NCBI RefSeq assembly: GCF_009931435.1
Contig: NZ_CP043414.1
DNA: 64,000 bases
Direction: 5' to 3' (one strand)
Source: Escherichia coli
Lineage (GTDB): Bacteria; Pseudomonadota; Gammaproteobacteria; Enterobacterales; Enterobacteriaceae
This document shows positions 5,321 through 60,431 of the stretch, piece after piece. The translations under genes and the position numbers were made by a program. The number at the start of each line of letters is the position of its first letter. Position 1 is the first letter of the stretch. The notes beneath the pieces were generated by a model. The model was not told the origin of the DNA. It did not search any database and saw nothing but the letters and a program-made list of their open reading frames with translations.

Positions 5321-6772
5321 TTAAATGACGTACAGGTCGAGATACTCATTGACCGGCATCTGTTCCAGGCGAGTTCTGTCGAGAGAAACCTCCAGAATGC
5401 GCTGCTGTTGGCGAGTCGGGAACTGGCGCGCGAGATTGATTTTGAATTTATCCACCAGCTTCGGAATGCCATCCTGACGGCGGCGAGCATGACCAATTGG
5501 GTACTCCACCACCACTTCTTCAAATCGCGTACCGTCGGTAAACTCAAGGGTTATGGCATTGGCGATGGCGCGTTTTTCAGGATCGTGGTAGTCAGCGGTA
5601 AATGCCGGATCTTCAAAGCAATTGATCTTCTCGCGCAGGGCGTCGATGCGTTTATCTTGCGCGACGTTGTCTTCGTAATCTGCTGCCGTTAAGCGCCCGA
5701 ACAGCAGTGGGATCGCCACCATATACTGAATGCAGTGGTCGCGGTCAGCCGGGTTATTGAGCGGCCCTTTTTTGTCGATGATGCGAATACAGGCTTCGTG
5801 GGTGCGAATGGTCACTTTTTCGATATCTGCCGCCGTTTTGCCTGCTGCCTGCATCTGTTCATAGAGCGTCATCGCCGCTTCAACTGCCGTCTGGGAGTGG
5901 AACTCAGCCGGGAAGGAGATTTTGAACAGCACATTTTCCATGACGTAAGAACCGTACGGGCGCTGGAAGCGGAACGATTCACCTTTAAAGGAGACGTCGT
6001 AGAAGCCCCATACCGGCGCGGTCAGGGCTGACGGGTAACCCATTTCGCCCGTTTTCGCCATCAGTGCCAGACGTACCGCGCGGGAAGTGGCATCGCCCGC
6101 CGCCCAGGATTTACGCGTGCCGGTGTTCGGCGCATGGCGATAGGTGCGCAGCGACTGACCGTCCACCCACGCCAGCGAAACGGCGTTGAGAATTTCCTCG
6201 CGGGTCAGGCCGAGCATTTCGGCGACCACGGCGGTGGAAGCCACTTTCACTAACAGAACGTGGTCGAGGCCAACGCGGTTAAAGGAGTTTTCCAGCGCGA
6301 TGCAGCCCTGAATTTCATGGGCTTTAATCATTCCGGTCAGCACCTGTTTCATGGTCAACGGCGCTTTGCCGCTGGCGACCGCGTTGCGCGAAAGCCAGTC
6401 CGCCGTTGCCAGAATGCCGCCGAGGTTGTCGGAAGGATGGCCCCACTCCGCCGCCAGCCAGGTATCGTTGAAATCAAGCCAGCGGATCATCGCGCCGATG
6501 TTAAATGCCGCCTGGACGGGGTCGAGCTGGAACTGAGTTCCGGGGACGCGCACGCCGTTAGGTACGACGGTGCCAGGAACAATTGGCCCCAGCAGTTTTT
6601 TACAGGCCGGGTATTCGAGAGCTTCCAGACCGCAGCCAAGGGTGTCGAGCAGGCAGTAATGGGCGGTGTCGTAGGCCACTCTGGAGCTGATTTCGTAGTT
6701 CATGACGTAATCGACGATATCAACGATTTCACGATCAAATTCCGGACGGATGTTGTTGATTTGAGCTGACAT
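5321..6772 (-). CDS. prpD: 2-methylcitrate dehydratase
   Basis: 483-aa ORF of the MmgE/PrpD type; position between prpC and prpE. Confidence 0.93.
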
Positions 6773-6805: not shown

Positions 6806-7975
6806 TTACTGGCGCTTATCCAGCGCGACAAACGGGCGGTCTTCAGGGCCAACATAATTGGCGGAAGGACGGATAATTTTGTTGTCCTGACGTTGTTCGA
6901 TAATGTGCGCCGCCCAGCCGGTGACGCGGGCGATAACAAACAGTGGCGTGAACATCTCGGTGGGAACGCCCATCATGTTGTAGGAAACAGCGGAGAACCA
7001 GTCGAGATTGGGGAACATCTTTTTGCTCTCCCACATCACCGTTTCCAGACGATCGGCGATGTTGTACATCTTCAGCGAGCCGCCTTCCTGCGAGAGCTGC
7101 TTCGCCACGCGTTTGATCACCTGATGACGCGGGTCAGCGATGGTATAAACCGGATGTCCAAAACCAATCACCACTTCTTTGTTTTCCACGCGCTTGCGGA
7201 TATCGGCTTCGGCTTCGTCCGGCGTTTCGTAACGTTGCTGGATCTCCAGCGACACTTCATTCGCCCCGCCGTGTTTCGGCCCGCGCAGTGCGCCAATCGC
7301 GCCGATAATGGCTGAATACATGTCAGAGCCGGTGCCCGCAATCACCCGGCTGGTAAAGGTGGAGGCGTTAAACTCGTGTTCGGCGTACAGCACCAGCGAA
7401 ATATGCATCGCCTTTTCCCAGCTTTGCGACGGCTTTTCGCCGTGCAGCAAATGCAGGAAGTGACCGCCGATGGAATCGTCATCGGTTTCCGGCTGGATGC
7501 GTTCGCCGTTGTGGCTGTAGTGATACCAGTAGAGAAGAATCGAGCTCAGCGACGCTAATAATTTGTCGGCAATATCCCGCGCGCCAGAGACGGTATGCCC
7601 CTCTTTTTCTGGCAGCGTGCAGCCGAGCGCGGAAACGCCGGTGCGCATGACATCCATCGGATGCGACGCCGCTGGTAAGGCTTCCAGCACGGTACGCACG
7701 TTAGCCGGTAAACCGCGCAGGGCTTTCAGTTTCGTTTTGTAGGCGGCGAGTTCGTCACGGGTCGGCAGTTTGCCGTGGATCAGCAGATGCGCCACTTCTT
7801 CAAATTCGCAATGTTCCGCCAGATCAAGAATATCGTAGCCGCGGTAATGCAGGTCATTGCCACTTTTACCCACGGTGCAGAGCGCCGTATTGCCCGCCGG
7901 AACGCCAGAAAGTGCCACAGATTTTTTCGGTTTAATGACATGGGTGCTGTTTTGCAGGATCGTTGTATCGCTCAT
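6806..7975 (-). CDS. prpC: 2-methylcitrate synthase (citrate synthase family)
   Basis: 389-aa ORF of the citrate-synthase type; synteny. Confidence 0.93.
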
Positions 7976-7999
7976 GTTGTCCTCGTCATTGTTATCATT

Positions 8000-8115
8000 T
8001 GTAGGGTCGAGATTGTTGTCGGATGCGACGCTATGCGTCTTATCCGACCTACAGTTCAGTTCATCCCGTAGGCCTGATAAGCCGCGTCAGCGACGCATCA
8101 GGCATCGGTTGTCGG
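8000..8115. repeat. REP element between prpC and prpB
   Basis: GGATGCGACGCTATGCGTCTTATCCGACCTACAG ... GTAGGCCTGATAAGCCGCGTCAGCGACGCATCAGGCATCGG palindromic REP motifs. Confidence 0.7.
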
Positions 8116-8135
8116 ATACAACCAAAGGGCGTTTT

Positions 8136-9026
8136 TTATTTCGCCTGGTTACGGGCAAACAGGTCGTCGAGCTTCTCTTCGTACTGGTAGTAGTTGATGC
8201 TTTCATACAGCTCGTTGCGGGTCTGCATGGTGTCGATGACGCTTTTCTGCGTACCTTCCTGGCGCAGGACGTTGTAGACATGTTCAGCGGCGCGGTTCAT
8301 GGCGCGGAAAGCAGAAAGGGGATACAGCGCCATTGCGACATGGGCGCTGCGTAATTCGTCGGTGGTAAACAGCGGTGTTGCGCCAAACTCGGTAATGTTG
8401 GCAAGGATTGGCACCTGCACTGCATCGGCAAACTGGCGGTACATAGCGAGTTCGGTAATTGCTTCCGGGAACAACATCTCGGCACCCGCTTCAACATAGG
8501 CCTGCGCACGCTCGATCGCCGCATCCAGCCCTTCAACCGCCAGCGCATCGGTGCGCGCCATGATCACAAAATCAGGATCGGTTTTCGCATCCACCGCCGC
8601 GCGGATCCGATCCACCATCTCTTCTTTCGAGACGATCGCTTTGTTCGGGCGATGACCGCAGCGTTTTGCTCCAACCTGATCTTCAATATGTAAGCCCGCC
8701 GCACCGGCTTTAATCATCGATTTCACGGTGCGGGCAACGTTAAAGGCCGAAGAGCCAAAACCGATATCCGCATCCACCAGCAGCGGCAGCGAGCAGACGT
8801 CAGTGATACGACGAATATCAGTCAGCACATCATCAAGAGTAGAAATACCGAGATCCGGCAACCCCAGCGAACCTGCCGCCACGCCACCACCGGAGAGATA
8901 AATCGCCTGATATCCGGCACGCTGCGCCAGCAGCGCATGGTTGGCGTTAATGGTGCCGACAATCTGCAATGGATTTTCTTTAGACAGTGCAGCGCGAAAT
9001 GCTTTACCTGGAGAGTGTAGAGACAT
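8136..9026 (-). CDS. prpB: 2-methylisocitrate lyase (PEP mutase/isocitrate lyase superfamily)
   Basis: 296-aa [37 protein letters not shown]...; first gene of prpBCDE. Confidence 0.93.
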
Positions 9027-9061
9027 AGCCCATCCTTTGTTATCAACTTGTTATTTGCGTT

Positions 9062-9079
9062 GATAAAGACAAAGCAAGG
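9062..9079 (-). promoter_or_regulatory. Candidate sigma-54 (-24/-12) promoter for prpBCDE
   Basis: The minus strand reads TGGCAT-ACCCC-TTGCT, ending about 35 nt upstream of the prpB ATG; consistent with the sigma-54-dependent activator PrpR encoded divergently. Confidence 0.55.
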
Positions 9080-9264
9080 GGTATGCCACAATTGCTTGAA
9101 TAAAATTAAATGTTTAATTTCAATTTGTTAGAGATAAAATCATGAAGTAATCCGCAAATATGCGTTTCAGTTAACGTTTCAGGCAATGTTTCTCTGCGTT
9201 TCATTGCAACAATTATGAAACAAGACTAAACCCAATATTCGGTTTCTTAACTTTGCGGTGCGCT

Positions 9265-10851
9265 ATGGCACATCCACCACGGCTGAATGACGACAAACCG
9301 GTTATCTGGACGGTATCTGTAACGCGGCTGTTCGAGCTATTTCGCGATATCAGTCTCGAGTTTGATCACCTGGCAAACATTACCCCTATCCAGCTTGGCT
9401 TTGAAAAAGCGGTGGCCTACATCCGCAAAAAACTGGCCAGCGAACGCTGCGACGCCATCATTGCCGCTGGCTCTAACGGCGCGTACCTGAAAAGCCGCCT
9501 GTCGGTACCGGTGATTCTGATAAAACCGAGTGGCTATGATGTGTTACAGGCACTAGCAAAAGCCGGAAAACTCACCTCTTCTATCGGCGTTGTCACCTAT
9601 CAGGAAACCATTCCGGCACTGGTAGCGTTTCAAAAAACCTTTAATTTGCGCCTCGACCAACGTAGCTACATTACCGAAGAAGACGCACGTGGGCAGATTA
9701 ACGAGCTAAAAGCCAACGGCACCGAAGCGGTGGTCGGCGCGGGGCTGATTACCGATCTGGCGGAAGAAGCCGGAATGACCGGAATTTTTATCTATTCTGC
9801 CGCCACCGTGCGCCAGGCATTTAGCGATGCGCTGGATATGACGCGCATGTCGTTACGCCATAATACTCACGATGCCACCCGCAACGCCCTGCGTACTCGT
9901 TACGTGCTGGGCGATATGCTCGGTCAATCACCACAGATGGAACAGGTACGGCAGACTATTTTGCTGTATGCCCGCTCCAGTGCGGCGGTGTTGATTGAAG
10001 GGGAAACGGGGACGGGCAAAGAGCTGGCGGCCCAGGCGATTCATCGGGAATATTTTGCCCGCCACGATGCGCGACAGGGCAAAAAGTCGCATCCTTTTGT
10101 TGCCGTCAACTGCGGGGCGATTGCTGAATCTCTGCTGGAAGCGGAGCTGTTTGGCTATGAGGAAGGAGCGTTTACCGGCTCGCGACGCGGAGGCCGCGCC
10201 GGGCTGTTTGAAATCGCCCACGGTGGCACGCTGTTTCTTGACGAGATAGGCGAAATGCCGCTGCCGTTGCAGACCCGGCTGCTGCGGGTGCTGGAAGAAA
10301 AAGAGGTCACCCGCGTCGGCGGGCATCAGCCTGTTCCGGTGGATGTGCGGGTTATTAGCGCCACTCACTGCAATCTCGAAGAGGATATGCAGCAAGGGCG
10401 TTTTCGCCGTGATCTGTTTTATCGACTGAGTATTTTGCGTCTGCAATTGCCGCCGCTACGCGAGCGGGCGGCGGATATTCTGCAGCTGGCGGAAAGCTTT
10501 TTGAAAGTGTCACTGGCGGCACTTACTGCGCCGTTTTCTTCCGCGTTACGTCAGGGATTACAGGCAAGTGAAACTGTGCTGTTGCGCTACAACTGGCCGG
10601 GAAATATTCGTGAACTGCGCAATATGATGGAACGACTGGCGCTATTTTTAAGTGTGGAACCGACGCCGGATTTAACGCCGCAATTTTTGCAGTTGCTACT
10701 GCCGGAACTGGCGCGCGAGTCGGCGGAAACTCCCGGTCCATGCTTACTGACGCCACAACAGGCACTGGAGAAATTTAATGGCGATAAAACAGCCGCGGCG
10801 AATTATTTAGGTATCAGCCGAACGACATTCTGGCGGCGGCTGAAAAACTGA
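9265..10851 (+). CDS. prpR: Sigma-54-dependent transcriptional activator of the prp operon
   Basis: AAA+ sigma-54 activator motifs ([14 protein letters not shown]) and a C-terminal HTH; start placed at MAHPP (5th codon of the 532-aa ORF) to give 528 aa. Confidence 0.9.
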
Positions 10852-48625: not shown

Positions 48626-48784
48626 TAATCCGAACACTGTCTGTTGTTCACTTTTTCAGGCGTCAGGCTCCCTTTCTGATGATGAAGCCTGACGCCATAT
48701 TACCGGAGATATGACAGAGTGAAGATCAATATCACTCCCCTGTTAAAAGATTCTTGTCGTCTCAGGTAAAATAAGTGATTAATA

Positions 48785-49669
48785 TCAATCATGTATTTTT
48801 ACAGCAAGACAACCACGAACAAACTCAGGATTAAAATGTTTTACCGATTCCCCAACATAACCCAAATCAAGCGAACTAATTTGCGCCATTTCTTTCTCTG
48901 TCAGTGAGAAATCCCAGATAGCAAAATTTTCTTCGATACGCTGTTGATGTGTCGATTTCGGAATAACGACCACTCCCCGTTGAATATTCCAACGCAGAAT
49001 GACCTGAGAAATCGATTTTTGATGGGCATCTGCAATATTCTGAAGCAGACTATTTTCAAAGGTTTTATGTCTTCCACCGCCTAACGGAGCCCATGCTTCA
49101 GGCTGCACGTTATAATACTTCATGGTTGCCAGCGCCTCTGGTTGGGCAAAATAGGGATGCAACTCGACCTGGTTGACCATCGGTTTAACTCTTACCGTCT
49201 CACAAAAGTTCGCCAGAACATGAGGGTAGAAATTGGAAACCCCAATCGCTTTTAATTTTCCCTCTTCATAGGCATCTTCGAGTGCACGCCACGCACTAAA
49301 ATAATCGCGCATGGCCTGGTGTAATAAATAGAGATCGAAGTATTCCAGTCCCGATTTTTTTAATGATGCTTCAATACCTGCTGCTGCAATATCCTGATTC
49401 AACATATCCTGCACCCACAATTTAGACGTTATAAATAACTCTTCTCGGGTACATAAACCTTCAGATATGGCTTCACGAACGGCTTCACCGACGGCATCTT
49501 CATTACCGTATACCGCTGCAGTGTCGATGAGTCGATAACCCGTGCGGATAGCATTCAACACTGACTGTTTGCACACGTCTTTATCGGTAACCTGAAAAAC
49601 ACCAAATCCCATCATCGGCATTTTCAGATTGTTACTTAATACGGAAAATTCCACTGTCAGTCCCTCCAT
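48785..49669 (-). CDS. Aldo-keto reductase (AKR family)
   Basis: 294 aa with AKR motifs ([28 protein letters not shown]...ISQVILRW). Confidence 0.8.
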   Translation of the reverse strand: MEGLTVEFSVLSNNLKMPMMGFGVFQVTDKDVCKQSVLNAIRTGYRLIDTAAVYGNEDAVGEAVREAISEGLCTREELFITSKLWVQDMLNQDIAAAGIEASLKKSGLEYFDLYLLHQAMRDYFSAWRALEDAYEEGKLKAIGVSNFYPHVLANFCETVRVKPMVNQVELHPYFAQPEALATMKYYNVQPEAWAPLGGGRHKTFENSLLQNIADAHQKSISQVILRWNIQRGVVVIPKSTHQQRIEENFAIWDFSLTEKEMAQISSLDLGYVGESVKHFNPEFVRGCLAVKIHD

Positions 49670-53800: not shown

Positions 53801-55134
53801 TTCGAGGCATTGCCTTTGTTATCGTAGGCAACTGCTGAAATCGCATAATAATTGTCTTTGCCTGGACGGTAAGCCGGGAGCGTTACTTGCCACTGACTAC
53901 CCTGACCGGTAATTTTGCCACCTTCAGCCAGTAATGACGGCGCTTCCCACTGCACATTTTTCAGTCCGTGAGTTGCTTTGCTGACCACAAGCCCCAGGGA
54001 AACCGTCTGACCGCCCTTGCCTTCAATACGCTCAGGCAGAGCAATACGGATCACTTCAGATTTGCGGTACTCAAGAACGATGTTGTTATTACGCTCAACC
54101 AGGTCATAGCGGCTGCCTGCCAGCATTCGACGCTCGCGAATGCTGTCTGTATCGAGTTGTTTTTGCAGAGGTTCGCCAATTCGGTAGTTAACTTCCAGGC
54201 CAAAGCGAGTGTCATTCTCACCACTCTTGCCCTGCTTATGCCCGGCGCTCAGTGTCAGAAGAGGCACTGGTGTATAGGTTACCTCGGCAGAAATAGCATG
54301 CGGGTCTTTCTGGCGTTTATCTTTACCAAACAGCCCGACTTCATCGCCATAATACTGCTCATACATCAGGCTTGCGCCAAGCTGCGGCCAGGCAGGTAAA
54401 TAGCCCTCAGCACGAATATCCCAGCCATTCGCCGGGCGTTCCTGATAATCCTCAACATCCGGCGATTTTTTCCAGCCAGAAGCCCGGATATAACCATTGG
54501 CGCTCAGTTTCAAATAATCACGCCAGTATTCCGCACCAACACCAATGCGGGTATGACTACGGGATAAATCATGATCGATAAAAGTATTCACCCCCGCCAT
54601 CCAGTCATTTCCTGAAAAATGACGCCAGCCAAAACCAATATTTGACTGAGTACGATCGTCGGTACGATGTATTGCCCCCTGAGTGAACAACATATTTGTC
54701 GGCGTGTCATAAATCGGATAAAGCATTTCCAGCGAAGAATCCTTCAGCGAGAAATCTTTATCGACATTCAGTTTGACGCGCGCTGTACCATATTTCCCGA
54801 GCCACTCCTGTATTTCCTGGTTAGCTTTAGCGGTGGCCATTCCGGTAATAAAATTACGTGTCGCATCGCTATCTGGCTGACTGCTTAAAAATGTCCCGGC
54901 ATTCGCGGCAAGCGACGCGACATTTTTCTCCACGTTATTATCAGCAGTTACCGTAGTATTTTCCATGCTCAATCGTGGCTGAACCGCATGCTGCGCATGT
55001 GCCGCCATTACTGGGGTAAAAGTGACTGCGAGTGGGAAAAGAACCTGAACAGAGATATTTGCCCACGCCACGCAGCGGGCCAGAACTGAATAACGAAATC
55101 GTGGTTGTTTATGACCTGTTTTATAACGTGACAT
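50881..55134 (-). CDS. fdeC: Intimin/invasin-like adhesin with tandem bacterial Ig-like (Big) domains (FdeC/EaeH), intact
   Basis: 1417 aa; N-terminal signal/anchor, then an invasin-type beta-barrel region, then a long array of Thr/Val/Ala-rich Ig-like repeats (...VTLTAVD..., ...TVTLVAKDAHGN...). Size matches FdeC as recalled. Confidence 0.82.
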   Translation of the reverse strand: MSRYKTGHKQPRFRYSVLARCVAWANISVQVLFPLAVTFTPVMAAHAQHAVQPRLSMENTTVTADNNVEKNVASLAANAGTFLSSQPDSDATRNFITGMATAKANQEIQEWLGKYGTARVKLNVDKDFSLKDSSLEMLYPIYDTPTNMLFTQGAIHRTDDRTQSNIGFGWRHFSGNDWMAGVNTFIDHDLSRSHTRIGVGAEYWRDYLKLSANGYIRASGWKKSPDVEDYQERPANGWDIRAEGYLPAWPQLGASLMYEQYYGDEVGLFGKDKRQKDPHAISAEVTYTPVPLLTLSAGHKQGKSGENDTRFGLEVNYRIGEPLQKQLDTDSIRERRMLAGSRYDLVERNNNIVLEYRKSEVIRIALPERIEGKGGQTVSLGLVVSKATHGLKNVQWEAPSLLAEGGKITGQGSQWQVTLPAYRPGKDNYYAISAVAYDNKGNASKRVQTEVVISGAGMSADRTALTLDGQSRIQMLANGNEQKPLVLSLRDAEGQPVKGMKDQIKTELSFKPAGNIVTRTLKATKSQAKPTLGEFTETEAGVYQSVFTTGTQSGEATITVSVDGMSKTVTAELRATMMDVANSTLSANEPSGDVVADGQQAYTLTLTAVDSEGNPVTGEASRLRLVPQDTNGVTVGAISEIKPGVYSATVSSTRAGNVVVRAFSEQYQLGTLQQTLKFVAGPLDAAHSSITLNPDKPVVGGTLTAIWTAKDANDNPVTGLNPDAPSLSGAAAAGSTASGWTNNGDGTWTAQITLGSTAGELEVMPKLNGQDAAANAAKVTVVADALSSGQSTVSVAADRVKAGESTTVTLVAKDAHGNAISGLSLSASLTGTASEGATISSWTEKGDGSYVATLTTGGKTGELRVMPLFNGQPAATEAAQLTVIAGEMSSANSTLVADNKTPTVKTTTELTFTVKDAYGNPVSNLKLDAPVFSGAASTGSERPSAGNWTEKGNGVYVATLTLGSAAGQLSVMPRVNGQNAVAQPLVLNVAGDASRAVISDMAVKVNNQLANGQSANQVTLTVVDSYGNPLQGQEVTLTLPQGVTSKTGNTVTTNAAGKADIELISTVAGELEIAAAVKNSQKTVTVKFNADASTGQANLQVDTAVQKVANGKDAFTLTATVEDKNGNPVPGTLVTFNLPRGVKPLTGDNVWVKANDEGKAELQVVSVTAGTYEITASAGNSQPSNTQTITFVADKATATVSSIEVIGNYALADGKAKQTYKVTVTDANKNLVKDSEVTLTASPASLNLEPNGTATTNEQGQAIFTATTTVAATYTLTAQVSQNNGQVSTKTAEAKFVADDKNAQLTASSNVPSLVADGKSTAKLEVTLMSANNPVGGNMWVDIQTPEGVTEKDYQFLPSKNDHFVSGKITRTFSTSKPGVYTFTFNALTYGGYEMKPVTVTITAVDANTATGEEAMK

Positions 55135-55684: not shown

Positions 55685-56275
<591 letters not shown>

Positions 56276-56467
56276 GCGATTATGCATCTACCTATTTACG
56301 TCGGTCACTCAGTCAGAGTCTTGCCCATATTCAATGAGGTTCAACACCGCAGCCAATGAAAAGTAGGCCATGCGGGGATTAATAGCATTACTCATTAATC
56401 AATCGCTCTTTTCATTTACGTGCTCTTTATGTAACATATTGCTTTTATTGATCTTCCTGGAGTTTGC

Positions 56468-56824
56468 ATGAATAAGAATCTCATCCTCGCATTTGCATTA
56501 TTTTCCTTACCTGTATTTGCAGAAGAAGATCTGGGGCCAGGCAAATATGTTTGTGACATTAGGATTTCCAGCCTGGATACCGCTACTCAAATTCTGTCAA
56601 AATCCGCAACAGTTCTCGATAATGGAAACAATTTCATCGTTCAAATGCCAAATGGAGATCAATTGTACTCTCCAGATCTGGAAAATGTTGATGATGGTAT
56701 AAAACAAAAAGCAACAATAGGTGGAGTGACATTTATTCGTCGTCCAACTTTTAACGATCGCTTCATCGTGGAAGATGGAAATACAGGATTCTTCTATAAG
56801 ATGCGAAACTGCGAGAAGAAATAA
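56468..56824 (+). CDS. Small secreted protein of unknown function
   Basis: 118 aa with signal peptide MNKNLILAFALFSLPVFA and two Cys residues; AT-rich. Confidence 0.5.
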   Translation: MNKNLILAFALFSLPVFAEEDLGPGKYVCDIRISSLDTATQILSKSATVLDNGNNFIVQMPNGDQLYSPDLENVDDGIKQKATIGGVTFIRRPTFNDRFIVEDGNTGFFYKMRNCEKK

Positions 56825-57112
56825 AGGAAGTTTGATAGCGATATCCTCCTGATTTTCAGGCTTTGTACCTGTTCAAGACTTACAACTACAAGCCGCTACG
56901 TGTTAACGCCTCCCAAAATAACCACCGTTAACCGTAGCGGTCATAGATACTATTATTTTAGCCACATTACTGGTGATAATGATAATTGATATTATGGCCG
57001 TATAGAAAATAAGCATTAATTATCAGAAAGTTTATTATGTAAACGCGTCCTAATGATTACGTTATTCCTCTTACCGATATTCGCCCAGAGCAACCATCAA
57101 TTACACATATCA

Positions 57113-58039
57113 TCAATTTTCGAGTTTTACTCTTTTCTCCACCATAAAATCAATAAAAGCACGAACTTTAGAGGGCATTCTCACCCGTGATGAAACATAA
57201 ATATAAAATCCAGGAAATGAAACAGCCCAATCCTCAAGAATCGGCTGTAACTTGCCCGCATTGATATGTTCAGCGATTGCAAAATCCAGATGTTGAATGA
57301 TACCCGTTCCATTCAGCGCCATTCGTATCATGCTTTCGTCATCATTAGAAATATACTTACCTGAAACCTCTATTTCGAACTCTTCATTACCCCCCACAAC
57401 ATTAGAAAACTCCCATGCAGAGAGTGCACCGCTACTTTTATGCCGCAACCGAAGGCAATTATGGTTACTCAGTTCCTGAGGCGTTTCAGGAATACCGTGT
57501 TCTTTTAAATAATCTGGCGATGCCACAGTAACCAGTTTAATAAGCGGAGAAACAGGAACGGCAGTCATATGCTCATCCAGTCCTTGCTCAAGACGTATGC
57601 CCACATCACAGCCGTCCGCAATAATGTTAGATAAACCGTCATCCATAATGAGTTCTATCTTTGTTTTGGGGTAACGAGTAAGAAACTCGCCAATATGAGG
57701 CTCAACAAGCATCCGTGCTGCAACACGGGAGGAATTTATTCTCAACAGGCCTGTAGGTTCAAGTTGGGTATCACCAACATCTTTCAAAGCATCATCAATT
57801 TGCCCCAAAGCCGACACCAGCACTTCATACAGACGCTGTCCTTCCTCAGTAAGCGACATATTGCGGGTCGTACGGTATATCAGCTTGGTGTTAAGACGTT
57901 CCTCAAGAGATTTTAAATTCTGGGACAATGCGGCCCGCGTAATACCCATTTCAGAAGCGGCTCTGGAAAAACTGCCGGCACGAACAATCAGCGCAAACCA
58001 GGCAAGAGAAGGCAAAATTGAAGGCTCTATTTTCATCAT
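57113..58039 (-). CDS. LysR-family transcriptional regulator
   Basis: HTH ...FSRAASEMGITRAALSQNLKSLEERL...; start placed at MMKIEPS (the ORF extends 31 codons further upstream with non-LysR-like sequence). Confidence 0.8.
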   Translation of the reverse strand: MMKIEPSILPSLAWFALIVRAGSFSRAASEMGITRAALSQNLKSLEERLNTKLIYRTTRNMSLTEEGQRLYEVLVSALGQIDDALKDVGDTQLEPTGLLRINSSRVAARMLVEPHIGEFLTRYPKTKIELIMDDGLSNIIADGCDVGIRLEQGLDEHMTAVPVSPLIKLVTVASPDYLKEHGIPETPQELSNHNCLRLRHKSSGALSAWEFSNVVGGNEEFEIEVSGKYISNDDESMIRMALNGTGIIQHLDFAIAEHINAGKLQPILEDWAVSFPGFYIYVSSRVRMPSKVRAFIDFMVEKRVKLEN

Positions 58040-58195
58040 TGTAAACCTTAACTTAACACTGTGATAGATATTAGACCATTGATGATAACCAATACAAGTC
58101 ATACTATTACGCCGTTCTCGATATGAACACAAATGCCAGTTGCGGATAATAGAAATGATATTTAAATCTGTTTAGGCAAATCCCTGGAGCTTGAA

Positions 58196-59116
58196 ATGAA
58201 AACGGTTTCGATAAAACACACTTACTGGGATATAGCTGCTGATATCTATTTCCCTGACGATTTTAATAGTGAAAAAAAGTATCCTGCCATTATCAGTGCC
58301 CATCCAATTGGAAGCTGCAAAGAACAGACATCGGGTAGTGTGTATGGTGCCGCCCTGGCAAAAGCTGGCTTTATCGTCATTGCTTTTGATGCCAGTTTTC
58401 AGGGAAGCAGCGGTGGAGAACCGCGTTATCTGGAAGATCCAACAATGCGAGTAAAAGACTTCAGCATTGTCGTTGATTACCTTACCACCTTACCTTACGT
58501 TGATGCCGGGCGTATTGGTGTACTGGGTATTTGTGGTGGAGGTGGATATGCCATTAATGCCGCAATGACAGAACGTCGGATTAAAGCCATTGGTACTGTC
58601 ACGGGTGCTAACTACGGGCGTCTTATGCGTGAGGGATTTACAGCGTTTAATCCTATCGGAGCACTCGAAGCAATGGCGCAACAAAGAACAGACGAAGCTA
58701 ACGGCGCAAAACTTCGCGTAGATGATTTGCTCCCTTCTTCTCCGGAAGCAGCTCTTGAAGCGGGATTAACAGAAATAGACCTTTTTGAAGCAACAGAATA
58801 TTATCGTTCGCCACGAGGCTGTGCGCCTAATGGGGTAAATCGTTCGCTATTTTCACATCAGACTGTTGCCGTGGGCTGGGATGCTTTTCATCTTGCAGAA
58901 GTCCTGTTAACTCAACCACTAATGGTTGTAGTGGGCGATAGAGTGGGCGCTTTTGGTGCCTATCGTGACGGCTGCGAAATTATTGGTCGTGCAGCCTCAA
59001 AACATAAAGAGTTGGTCGTGGTTGAAGGTTATTCACATTACGACCTGTATGATAAGCCAGAACCTGTGAAACAGGCGCTCGATAAATTAATTCCTTTTTA
59101 CAAAACACATTTGTAA
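58196..59116 (+). CDS. Alpha/beta hydrolase (dienelactone hydrolase-like)
   Basis: 306 aa with nucleophile-elbow-like GICGGGGYA; divergent from the LysR gene. Confidence 0.7.
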   Translation: MKTVSIKHTYWDIAADIYFPDDFNSEKKYPAIISAHPIGSCKEQTSGSVYGAALAKAGFIVIAFDASFQGSSGGEPRYLEDPTMRVKDFSIVVDYLTTLPYVDAGRIGVLGICGGGGYAINAAMTERRIKAIGTVTGANYGRLMREGFTAFNPIGALEAMAQQRTDEANGAKLRVDDLLPSSPEAALEAGLTEIDLFEATEYYRSPRGCAPNGVNRSLFSHQTVAVGWDAFHLAEVLLTQPLMVVVGDRVGAFGAYRDGCEIIGRAASKHKELVVVEGYSHYDLYDKPEPVKQALDKLIPFYKTHL

Positions 59117-59288
59117 TAACCTTGCAGGGAGATTCATTATCTCCCTGAGATTTATCCTTTATTGACTACACGACAATAATAAAATTACTCAAAAAGAATT
59201 CTATTAAAGGAAAAAAGCATCAAAAAGTAGCAACTCAACTTATTAAGATTATACGCATTAAAATCAGATAAACATTTGAGGTATTGTT

Positions 59289-60431
59289 ATGATAAATAAA
59301 CACCCATCATTGTTTTCTCCTTTTATGCTGACAGAAAAAATAAAGCTACGTAATCGTATCGTTATGGCCCCTATGACGACCTGGTCAGCTAATCCTGATG
59401 GAACCATCTCTGAGCAAGAACTCGAATTTTATAAACGTCGCTCACAAAATGTTGGTTTAGTAATAACAGGATGCACCTATGTCACGCCAAGCGGCATTGG
59501 GTTTACTCATGAATTTGCCGCATATGACGACCGTTTCATTAACAGCCTTGAAAAGTTAGCTGCTGCAGCCAAAAGTGGCGGTGCTCCGGCTATTTTGCAG
59601 ATTTTCCACGCCGGTAATAAAGCCATCCCGGAGCTTGTGCCAAATTACGATGTTATTAGTGCCAGCGCATCAAGCGTAAAATCTGGTGACTTTATGAAGA
59701 GAGTGGTACAAAGCAGGGAAATGACTGAAAACGAAATTCAGGAAACCATTAGAGCATTCGGAGATGTCACAAAAAGGGCGATTAAAGCAGGTTTTGATGG
59801 CGTTGAACTTCATGGTGCGCACGGATTCCTTCTGCAGAATTTCTTCTCCCCTCTATTTAACCAGCGTAATGACCGATGGGGAGGAGATCTTGAAGGACGT
59901 ATGCGCTTCCCGCTGGCCGTATTACAGGAAGTAAAAAATGTAGTCTATGAATATGCGAAAAAGCCCTTTGCCATCGGTTACAGAATATCTCCTGAAGAAT
60001 CTGTAACAGGGGGGCTGCGGATAGAGGATACTTATAAACTCCTTGATCGGCTCATTTCATCCGGTATTTCGTATATACATACCTCGCTGGTCAGTATTAA
60101 CGATAGCTACCCTGTTGAGTCGCCAAATGGCCCCCGAACTATTGAATTGATTTTAAATCATATTGCAGGCAGAGTGCCGGTAATCGCCGCAGGTAAAATA
60201 CGCACACCTTCTCAGGCTCAAGAAGCAATTTCCGCTGGCCTGCCACTTGTTGCGATCGGTAAAGGGCTGGTGATAAATCCAGAATGGGTGACTTTAGCTG
60301 AATCAGGTAGAAGTCATGAAATTCAAACAGCCCTTAATCCACAACGCGTTCCTGAATTAACCATTCCGGATAAACTATGGGATCAAATTCAGGCATCGAA
60401 AGGAACTGGCTGGTTTCCGTTAATGGATTAA
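59289..60431 (+). CDS. NADH:flavin oxidoreductase (Old Yellow Enzyme family)
   Basis: 380 aa with OYE-type motifs (RIVMAPMTT, GFDGVELHGAHGFLLQNFFSP). Confidence 0.8.
   Translation: MINKHPSLFSPFMLTEKIKLRNRIVMAPMTTWSANPDGTISEQELEFYKRRSQNVGLVITGCTYVTPSGIGFTHEFAAYDDRFINSLEKLAAAAKSGGAPAILQIFHAGNKAIPELVPNYDVISASASSVKSGDFMKRVVQSREMTENEIQETIRAFGDVTKRAIKAGFDGVELHGAHGFLLQNFFSPLFNQRNDRWGGDLEGRMRFPLAVLQEVKNVVYEYAKKPFAIGYRISPEESVTGGLRIEDTYKLLDRLISSGISYIHTSLVSINDSYPVESPNGPRTIELILNHIAGRVPVIAAGKIRTPSQAQEAISAGLPLVAIGKGLVINPEWVTLAESGRSHEIQTALNPQRVPELTIPDKLWDQIQASKGTGWFPLMD

Follow-up and report, generated by a model that had tools for sequence, protein, structure and literature searches.

The 64,000-nucleotide stretch of Escherichia coli DNA analysed here (contig NZ_CP043414.1 of RefSeq assembly GCF_009931435.1; hereafter the window) is part of the chromosome and runs from the codBA/prp region through ecpR. 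Positions 57113–60431 contain three intact open reading frames (ORFs), which encode a LysR-type transcriptional regulator (LysR1), an alpha/beta hydrolase (HydB) and an Old Yellow Enzyme (OYE)-family flavin oxidoreductase. A first-pass annotation, made from the nucleotide sequence, had assigned the genes to these families, and the Pfam matches agree; the divergent orientation of the regulator and hydrolase genes also holds. Neighbouring genes were taken from a genome annotated by the Prokaryotic Genome Annotation Pipeline (PGAP) that is 99.3% identical over the locus. In it, the cluster genes are labelled 'LysR family transcriptional regulator', 'alpha/beta hydrolase' and 'NADH-dependent flavin oxidoreductase'. 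They are followed by ykgR and ykgMO, and are preceded by yahK, rclRABC, an aldo/keto reductase (AKR) gene, fdeC, a truncated AKR gene and a hypothetical gene. The same annotation bears out the redox-rich neighbourhood described earlier, with rclRABC, yahK and further AKR genes in the window. The three genes are uncharacterised members of known families, already annotated generically by PGAP. Their coordinates, and those of the other features discussed below, are collected in Table 1.

Table 1. Features of the LysR1-hydB-OYE locus, in window coordinates
Feature	Position	Strand	Evidence
LysR1, LysR-type transcriptional regulator, 308 aa	57113..58039	-	Pfam, PGAP start, orthologues
Divergent control region LysR1/hydrolase, 156 bp	58040..58195		sequence
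Candidate LysR operator, conserved block TGTAAACCTTAACTTAACACTGTGAT	58041..58066		cross-species intergenic alignment
HydB, YcjY-family alpha/beta hydrolase, 306 aa; Cys113, His281, Asp248	58196..59116	+	homology, AlphaFold model
Hydrolase-OYE spacer, 172 bp, AT-rich (28.5% GC)	59117..59288		sequence
Hairpin, 9-bp perfect stem, 5-nt loop	59125..59147	+	folding energy, allele comparison
OYE family FMN oxidoreductase, 380 aa; Thr30, Trp32, His175, His178, Phe180	59289..60431	+	PF00724
OYE 3' end, retained in K-12 as pseudogene ykgP (b4630)	60340..60431	+	alignment, MG1655 annotation
Segment absent from K-12-type genomes, 4654 bp	55686..60339		genome alignment
Aldo/keto reductase AKR1, 3'-truncated pseudogene	55700..56275	+	PF00248, PGAP
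677-bp replacement segment with 118-aa ORF (56468-56824)	56262..56938		homology breakpoints

In pairwise comparisons of four E. coli alleles, the ratio of non-synonymous to synonymous polymorphism (pN/pS) is 0.04 to 0.22 for all three genes (0.056 for LysR1 against the NU14 allele, 0.11–0.22 for the OYE). These low values indicate that the genes are expressed and selected, and argue that all three are functional and under purifying selection. The alleles are mosaic: the LysR gene of the window has one synonymous difference from that of O157 and 16 from that of NU14, while the hydrolase gene has 28 and 4, respectively, which implies recombination breakpoints within the cluster. No RNA family reaches its gathering threshold between positions 55000 and 62000 of the window.

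LysR1 consists of an amino-terminal HTH_1 domain (PF00126, residues 12–69, E = 3.4e-19) and a LysR_substrate domain (PF03466, residues 95–302, E = 2.6e-29). Its gene had been drawn up to position 58132, which is over-extended by 93 bp and corresponds to the longest TTG-started ORF (57113–58132). The true start is the ATG at 58039, because the PGAP call agrees and the amino-termini of the Paraburkholderia proteins (MxIEPSLLPxLAWF) match. LysR1 scores below the NCBIfam curated cut-offs of YafC, TtdR, GcvA and AaeR, the best being YafC (192.6 bits versus 470), and it is 31% identical to K-12 PgrR (YcjZ). Orthologues with 50–53% identity are encoded divergently to an orthologous hydrolase in seven other species, belonging to Pantoea, Shewanella, Stenotrophomonas and, in four cases, Paraburkholderia.

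When the intergenic regions between these two genes are compared, the block at 58041–58066 is the sole stretch that can be aligned among E. coli, three Paraburkholderia species, Shewanella, Pantoea and P. dipogonis, with a weaker counterpart in Stenotrophomonas. The block follows a pattern of approximately TTGT(C/A)AA, about 10 bases and then (A/C)CTG. Its core, TTAACTTAACACTG, occurs once only in the window, at 58048–58061. No convincing T-N11-A dyad is found in it. The block is not simply a ribosome-binding site, because its spacing to the LysR start codon differs among species, and we consider it a candidate LysR operator. A sigma-70-like promoter is directed toward the LysR1 gene (from 58174 to 58146). 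No consensus promoter toward the hydrolase gene is found in the divergent region, as would be expected if the hydrolase promoter were activator-dependent.

HydB matches alpha/beta-hydrolase families in Pfam, with 40 bits for Peptidase_S15 and 25 bits for dienelactone hydrolase (DLH, PF01738; cut-off 21), where only residues 28–131, in the amino-terminal half, align. Full-length matches are obtained with phmmer to the YcjY structure (PDB entry 5XB6, E = 3.7e-67) and to PA2218 (PDB entry 2HDW, E = 2.9e-44), and Foldseek gives template-modelling (TM) scores of 0.78 and 0.74 to the same two entries. With a sequence identity of 41% to K-12 YcjY, HydB is best described as a member of the YcjY/PA2218 family and a paralogue of YcjY. 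Next in fold similarity come a polyester hydrolase, the DcsB thioesterase, feruloyl esterases and monoglyceride lipases. In the AlphaFold model, which has a predicted local distance difference test (pLDDT) value of 75, Cys113 is located between a strand (residues 102–112) and a helix (residues 114–125), Asp248 follows the strand 242–247 and His281 the strand 271–276. All three residues stand where a canonical triad would have them. A lid of helices, about 100 residues long, is inserted between residues 140 and 237. The nucleophile elbow reads G-I-C113-G-G, of the G-x-C-x-G type, in which cysteine replaces serine; Cys113 is invariant in 12 aligned family sequences, and His281 is absent only from one divergent paralogue.

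The hydrolase had first been described as dienelactone-type, and a Ser-Asp-His triad had been named as a check on it. The serine is not present, Cys113 being the nucleophile, and the check formally fails. A cysteine nucleophile is usual for dienelactone-type enzymes and does not contradict that label, but sequence and fold are those of the YcjY/PA2218 family. None of the top 50 Foldseek neighbours of HydB is a classical dienelactone hydrolase, and identity with such enzymes was rejected on these structural neighbours. Within NCBIfam, the nearest named model is UilS, an acyl-homoserine-lactone (AHL) lactonase annotated as a dienelactone hydrolase (PMC11633161). The match (NF047920, E = 1.3e-20) reaches 74.3 bits against a cut-off of 400 and is restricted to residues 5–133. 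A quorum-quenching AHL lactonase module, to which this partial match might point, is extremely improbable: besides the low score and short alignment, the accompanying flavin reductase would be unexplained, and E. coli is not known to make AHL.

Homologues of HydB with 76–83% identity are present in Burkholderia, Cupriavidus, Pseudomonas, Stenotrophomonas, Shewanella, Rhodococcus, Mycobacterium and Propionispora. Despite this protein identity, their genes have drifted to the GC content of their hosts (46–66%). Such constraint across Proteobacteria, Actinobacteria and Negativicutes is unusual for an uncharacterised alpha/beta hydrolase.

The OYE matches the Oxidored_FMN family (PF00724) over residues 7–343, covering positions 1–341 of the 342 in the profile (E = 1.6e-77, 261.5 bits). 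Its best match in the PDB is entry 3L5A (E = 9e-47), followed by TOYE, YqjM, PETNR and NemA, and in NCBIfam it falls below the cut-offs of both NamA (176.8 bits versus 431) and NemA (118.8 versus 403). The His-x-x-His pair is present, with His175 and His178 aligned to the HAAH motif of TOYE; where TOYE has HAAHGY, our protein has H175-G-A-H178-G-F180. Thr30 and Trp32 stand at the positions of the Cys and Tyr of the YqjM class. Phe180 occupies the place of the canonical proton-donor tyrosine (Tyr196 of OYE1, Tyr169 of YqjM), two residues past the second His/Asn. With this tyrosine lacking, standard ene-reductase chemistry cannot be assumed.

Near-identical E. coli entries dominated an earlier search for OYE homologues, which was uninformative and gave way to a scan of one genome per species and by an exhaustive search of 1.8 billion representatives, from which 128 relatives were aligned. 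In the genome scan, close relatives occur only in Escherichia, one Citrobacter (83% identity), Bacillaceae/Paenibacillus (53–60%), Paraburkholderia (56–57%) and Sphingobacteriia (51–53%). All homologues of more than 50% identity keep the motifs PMTTW, LQIFHAGNKA and HGAHGF. Among the aligned representatives, the proton-donor position is Tyr in 98, mostly as HGAN(T/G/H)YL, and Phe in 20; clusters at least 47% identical to our protein carry HGAH(G/S/E)F, and the changes of Asn to His and of Tyr to Phe co-occur in the E. coli subclade. The nearest yqiG-named cluster is one of B. cereus (called yqiG in some sources; 39% identity, E = 3.6e-80), and the top relatives include fumarate-reductase fusion proteins of 900–1000 amino acids. 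In an OYE network study, such fusions belong to the cluster that holds the Class III enzymes YqiG and LacER (bioRxiv 10.1101/2023.07.10.548207). The E. coli OYE would thus be a distinct, tyrosine-less offshoot of a YqiG-related group. Its Bacillus and Paenibacillus relatives adjoin genes for MerR or TetR regulators, short-chain dehydrogenases/reductases (SDRs) and, in some genomes, an AKR 65% identical to AKR1.

In other bacteria, a recurrent gene order is found, compact in Citrobacter and Paraburkholderia, in which a LysR gene faces genes for a YcjY-like hydrolase, HydB, an NmrA-like NAD(P)H reductase and an OYE. In Citrobacter sp. Cu233, a PgrR orthologue (88%) faces a YcjY orthologue (91.5%), and the operon continues with HydB (88% identical to that of the window), the NmrA-like protein and the OYE (83%), with gaps of 69 bp at most. 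In Paraburkholderia nodosa and P. silviterrae, an orthologue of LysR1 (50–51%) faces a YcjY-like hydrolase (in P. nodosa 72% identical to K-12 YcjY), followed by a HydB-type hydrolase (64%), an NmrA-like gene and an OYE (56–57%). P. bannensis has no NmrA-like gene, the OYE gene coming directly after hydB, as in E. coli. A HydB of about 80% identity is accompanied by a divergent LysR1-type regulator (51–53%) and an NmrA-like gene in Pantoea, Shewanella, P. dipogonis and Stenotrophomonas. In the hydB context of P. aeruginosa, an AraC-type regulator takes the place of LysR.

Outside E. coli, the NmrA-like gene adjoins hydB in nine out of 12 contexts, further partners being Flavodoxin_4, zinc-dependent alcohol dehydrogenase or SDR genes; by their predicted families, the partners are in every case reductases of the NAD(P)H or flavin type. 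PDB entry 3QVO is a strong match of the NmrA-like protein, whose matches to biliverdin/flavin reductases and 3E8X are weak; 3E8X is homologous to YhfK, an ene-reductase of Listeria (PMC10269891). A DNA-level search for an intact NmrA-like gene in E. coli finds nothing that matches the Citrobacter gene, and tblastn reveals no relic of it in the hydrolase-OYE spacer of the window, O157 or NU14 alleles. Since the LysR/hydrolase/OYE linkage recurs in Citrobacter and Paraburkholderia, the three E. coli genes are the shortened form of an old, conserved proteobacterial operon.

Traces of a second copy of this operon can be recognised in K-12. The product of ymjD (21 amino acids; MKHIQIRNSDMDWHIAANNLG) matches residues 1–18 of Citrobacter HydB with 61% identity (E = 3e-5), and that of ymjC (60 amino acids) residues 18–63 of the NmrA-like protein with 54% identity (E = 1e-12). 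Both genes, located at NC_000913.3 1390680–1390933, are amino-terminal stumps of hydB-type and NmrA-like genes, relics of a second operon copy. With these stumps, the 'ycjY-ymjD-ymjC-mpaA operon' of K-12 has the look of a ycjY-hydB-nmrA(-OYE) operon that has decayed and come to adjoin mpaA. In genomic SELEX (systematic evolution of ligands by exponential enrichment; PMC5934670), PgrR binds between ycjY and ycjZ, which provides, by analogy, an experimental precedent for LysR control of the YcjY hydrolase family. YcjY itself is annotated in K-12 as 'putative hydrolase'; the papers retrieved mention it no more than in passing, and no biochemical study of it was found in the literature.

PgrR has been described as a regulator of peptidoglycan recycling (PMC5934670), and since HydB and LysR1 are paralogous to YcjY and PgrR, a role of the present cluster in that process might be proposed by analogy with the ycjY-ymjD-ymjC-mpaA regulon. 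We consider this very improbable. Given the ymjD and ymjC stumps, the link to mpaA looks like an accident of K-12-type genomes; in Citrobacter, mpaA, ycjG, mppA, ynaI and tpx are all absent within 13 kb of the operon, and no other context contains a linked murein-related gene.

The distribution of the cluster was surveyed in 5426 complete E. coli genomes, with presence defined as a match to at least 80% of a 3.5-kb stretch. It is carried by 2105 of them (about 39%), at 97–99% identity, in keeping with the strain variability surmised in the first-pass annotation. Nearly all the remaining genomes match just the final 160 bp of the stretch. The 377 genomes that lack even this remnant, on the ykgP side, show that larger deletions or rearrangements at the locus must exist. 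A K-12-like genome aligns to the window through position 55685 and resumes at 60340, and the deletion junction, with a single base of microhomology, is GAACGATAA joined to CACAAC. What is left in such genomes codes for the final 30 residues of the OYE. In MG1655, the pseudogene ykgP (b4630) stands alone at the cluster position; the suspected absence from K-12 is correct, identical genes not occurring at this position. In all 13 of the short-match genomes sampled, the match begins at the identical base, which points to a single old deletion, either inherited or spread by recombination.

The cluster is present at the same fdeC locus in one cryptic-clade Escherichia. This copy and the K-12 scar together argue that the genes are ancestral and have been lost by many lineages, not newly gained; they also rule out a recently acquired island. 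The earlier description as an accessory cluster is thus apt as far as strain variability is concerned, but not in the sense of an acquired island. Carriage on plasmids was likewise rejected in favour of a chromosomal location, the 'plasmid' matches being mislabelled 4.9-Mb chromosomes, K-12 F-prime-like records that have only the ykgP remnant, or ends of contigs. Two cluster-bearing PLSDB records of 4.9 Mb, NZ_CP134663.1 and NZ_CP141089.1, are evidently chromosomal sequences entered as plasmids. A 4.4-kb contig labelled 'MAG: Collinsella sp.' (JAIJJM010000245.1), 97–99% identical to E. coli LysR2, LysR1, hydrolase and OYE, is probably E. coli DNA mis-binned in an actinobacterial metagenome-assembled genome (MAG).

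Three states of the locus can be distinguished: a full form, the form shared by the window and O157, and the K-12 deletion. The full form, found in NU14 and 1889 genomes, comprises AKR1, AKR2, LysR2, LysR1, the hydrolase and the OYE. In the window/O157 form (315 genomes), a 677-bp segment replaces the 3' end of AKR1, AKR2 and LysR2; homology to Escherichia sp. E1V33 and NU14 stops at 56261 and restarts at 56939. The remaining AKR1 pseudogene covers positions 3–193 of the 291 in PF00248 and is flagged 'missing C-terminus' by PGAP; the gene is intact in NU14 (283 amino acids) and in phylogroup B2 strains. The replacement segment has a GC content of 40%, and the product of its 118-aa ORF has a signal-peptide-like amino-terminus and no match in Pfam or NCBIfam. 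Homologues of this product are encoded on an Enterobacter asburiae plasmid (82% identity) and on Pantoea megaplasmids (55%), all of them hypothetical proteins. Elsewhere in the region, the AKR gene adjacent to rclC (equivalent to 48784–49653) is intact in this lineage, where K-12 keeps only the fragment ykgQ; in K-12, eaeH/fdeC and ykgA are interrupted by IS3, and the rcl-ykgM interval is heavily decayed. In O157:H7 SS17, ykgR is frameshifted and ISEc8 is located between ykgR and ykgM (7966–10616 of the locus excerpt).

The hydrolase and OYE genes are separated by a spacer in E. coli. A hairpin begins 9 nucleotides past the hydrolase stop codon, with a folding energy of -15.3 kcal/mol (z = -3.07); among the O157, NU14 and window alleles its stem is kept and its loop is variable. 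Its T-tract is not strong enough to be picked up by the terminator scan, and the hairpin is possibly a weak terminator or an mRNA-end hairpin. Neither a consensus promoter nor a second copy of the operator motif is found in the spacer upstream of the OYE gene. On this sequence evidence, co-transcription and co-regulation of the two enzyme genes in E. coli are no more than possible. In O157:H7 SS17, the spacer is 60 bp longer than in the window (6118–6349 of the locus excerpt).

This arrangement raises the possibility that the E. coli genes are mere neighbours, LysR1 controlling the hydrolase only and the OYE being a separate, general NAD(P)H:flavin/quinone reductase. The hairpin placed right after the hydrolase stop, the AT-rich spacer behind it and the missing operator motif would all fit such a separation, as would the observations that the Firmicutes OYE subfamily never adjoins a YcjY-type hydrolase and that most hydB homologues do not have an OYE gene as neighbour. 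Nevertheless, the same order is kept in compact operons of Citrobacter and three Paraburkholderia species, the spacer contains no recognisable promoter and the hairpin lacks a proper T-tract. A chance neighbourhood is, on balance, unlikely.

Gene context alone gives an electrophile- or xenobiotic-processing module as the best reading of the locus, in agreement with the redox/detoxification role suggested in the first-pass annotation. In its favour stand the divergent pairing of LysR1 orthologues with hydB, the shared intergenic block, the PgrR precedent, the hydB-OYE linkage in other species, the reductase partners of hydB, the catalytic residues, and the neighbours and stress role of OYE relatives. 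As we propose it, with a probability of roughly 55%, the module would combine small-molecule sensing by LysR1, activation of the cysteine hydrolase with read-through into the OYE gene, and electrophilic carbonyl substrates shared by the two enzymes, and it would be conditional and dispensable. LysR1 would bind the conserved block beside its own start codon and, in response to a small-molecule inducer, activate the activator-dependent hydrolase promoter; part of the transcription would pass the hairpin and enter the OYE gene. The OYE and HydB would then act on one class of exogenous electrophilic carbonyl compounds. The OYE may transfer hydride from NAD(P)H via flavin mononucleotide (FMN), the acceptor being a quinone, a nitro group or an activated C=C bond; with Phe180 in place of Tyr, any protonation would have to come from solvent or another residue. 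HydB may cleave an ester, lactone or thioester using Cys113 and His281 (with Asp248), by way of a thioester intermediate. Such a module would be conditionally useful, in detoxification or scavenging, and its loss from many E. coli lineages would be due to its being dispensable.

Several observations weigh against this proposal. The replacement of the proton-donor tyrosine by Phe180 is one, and another is the acid residue of HydB, which is uncertain because the position of Asp248 is taken by Ser in YcjY and by Glu in PA2218. Most of the closest HydB homologues (about 80% identity) have no linked OYE gene, and in E. coli itself the stable hairpin and the spacer, which is devoid of an operator copy or consensus promoter, part the two enzyme genes. 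The literature on ECs0331–0333 consists of one study of single-nucleotide polymorphism (SNP) typing, with no expression, binding or enzyme data; for ykgP, the literature yields unrelated matches only. Finally, the conservation of HydB is easier to reconcile with a single defined substrate than with detoxification of many compounds.

As a tentative alternative that takes up this last point, the genes could belong to a catabolic pathway dedicated to one specific unsaturated lactone or ester, such as a plant compound of the coumarin or butenolide type. The OYE, and elsewhere also the NmrA-like reductase, would saturate the ring C=C bond, and lactone opening by the cysteine hydrolases would then yield a product for central metabolism. 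The very high conservation of the HydB protein despite full GC drift would be understandable, as would the four-gene order that is fixed in beta- and gamma-proteobacteria with two paralogous hydrolases side by side. The OYE family member XenA reduces 8-hydroxycoumarin in quinoline degradation, and the nearest named family model of HydB, UilS, is a lactonase. That match, however, covers the amino-terminal half at 74 of the 400 bits required; transporter, ring-cleavage and downstream catabolic genes are not consistently linked, E. coli retains two of the four enzymes, and substrate evidence is nil. We regard the lactone pathway as possible, if doubtful.

In the same vein, and with similar reserve, the E. 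coli pair may be the remnant of an ancient, constrained four-enzyme pathway (YcjY, HydB, the NmrA-like reductase and the tyrosine-less OYE) for one widespread small molecule. If so, the Phe180/His178 subclade of OYEs would perform non-canonical chemistry (hydride-only reduction, isomerisation), the roughly 80% identity of HydB across phyla would reflect a precise substrate, and the published 'peptidoglycan recycling' role of PgrR would be a by-product of gene decay in K-12.

The present analysis adds to the generic annotation a deletion history, a conserved four-gene operon, the cysteine nucleophile and the tyrosine-less OYE subclade. It also assigns origins to three tiny features of K-12, ykgP being the 3' stump of the OYE gene, ymjD a hydrolase stump and ymjC an NmrA-like stump. 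An intact LysR, cysteine-hydrolase and OYE module that is missing from the laboratory strain has been kept in about 39% of complete E. coli genomes, O157:H7 and B2 uropathogens among them. Should the proposed electrophile-processing module respond to electrophiles from the host or the diet, it could play a part in the niche differences that separate E. coli lineages. HydB, with its cysteine nucleophile and its conservation across phyla, and the Phe-for-Tyr OYE subclade may repay biochemical study, while the practical value of the finding is modest.

When the proteins are compared with known systems, HydB shares the alpha/beta fold, a cysteine nucleophile and a marginal DLH match with dienelactone hydrolases (Cys-His-Asp enzymes such as ClcD), but differs by the half-length of that match and by the inserted helical lid. 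PgrR and YcjY of K-12 (PDB entry 5XB6) have the same layout of a divergent LysR gene and a 306-residue hydrolase with a G-x-C-x-G elbow. They are nevertheless paralogues of LysR1 and HydB, not orthologues (31% and 41% identity), with Ser in YcjY where HydB has Asp248; Citrobacter holds both hydrolase types in one operon under a PgrR orthologue, and the K-12 ycjY locus, joined to mpaA, is without intact hydB, NmrA-like and OYE genes.

The OYE resembles YqjM/TOYE and NemA/PETNR in its near full-length PF00724 match and in the His-x-x-His pair, and differs from them in Thr30 for the YqjM-class Cys, Trp32 for Tyr and Phe180 for the donor Tyr. Likeness also exists to the YqiG/OfrA-type ('Class III') enzymes of Firmicutes, with which it shares the Pfam family, approximate length, a Thr instead of Cys before the flavin and a PMTT-type motif. 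These relatives mostly have HGAN(T/G/H)YL, where the E. coli subclade has HGAH(G/S/E)F. Electrophiles, quinones and hypochlorite induce OfrA, the related OYE of S. aureus, which also gives protection from them (PMC9152700). For the module as a whole, the NemR-NemA pair of E. coli and the MhqR regulon offer a functional analogy only: they are alike in being dispensable and in having a dedicated regulator together with a reductase (and a hydrolase). The MhqR regulon of Bacillus and Staphylococcus pairs reductases with the carboxylesterase MhqD. The regulators of these systems belong to the TetR or MarR families, whereas that of the cluster described here is a LysR-type protein.

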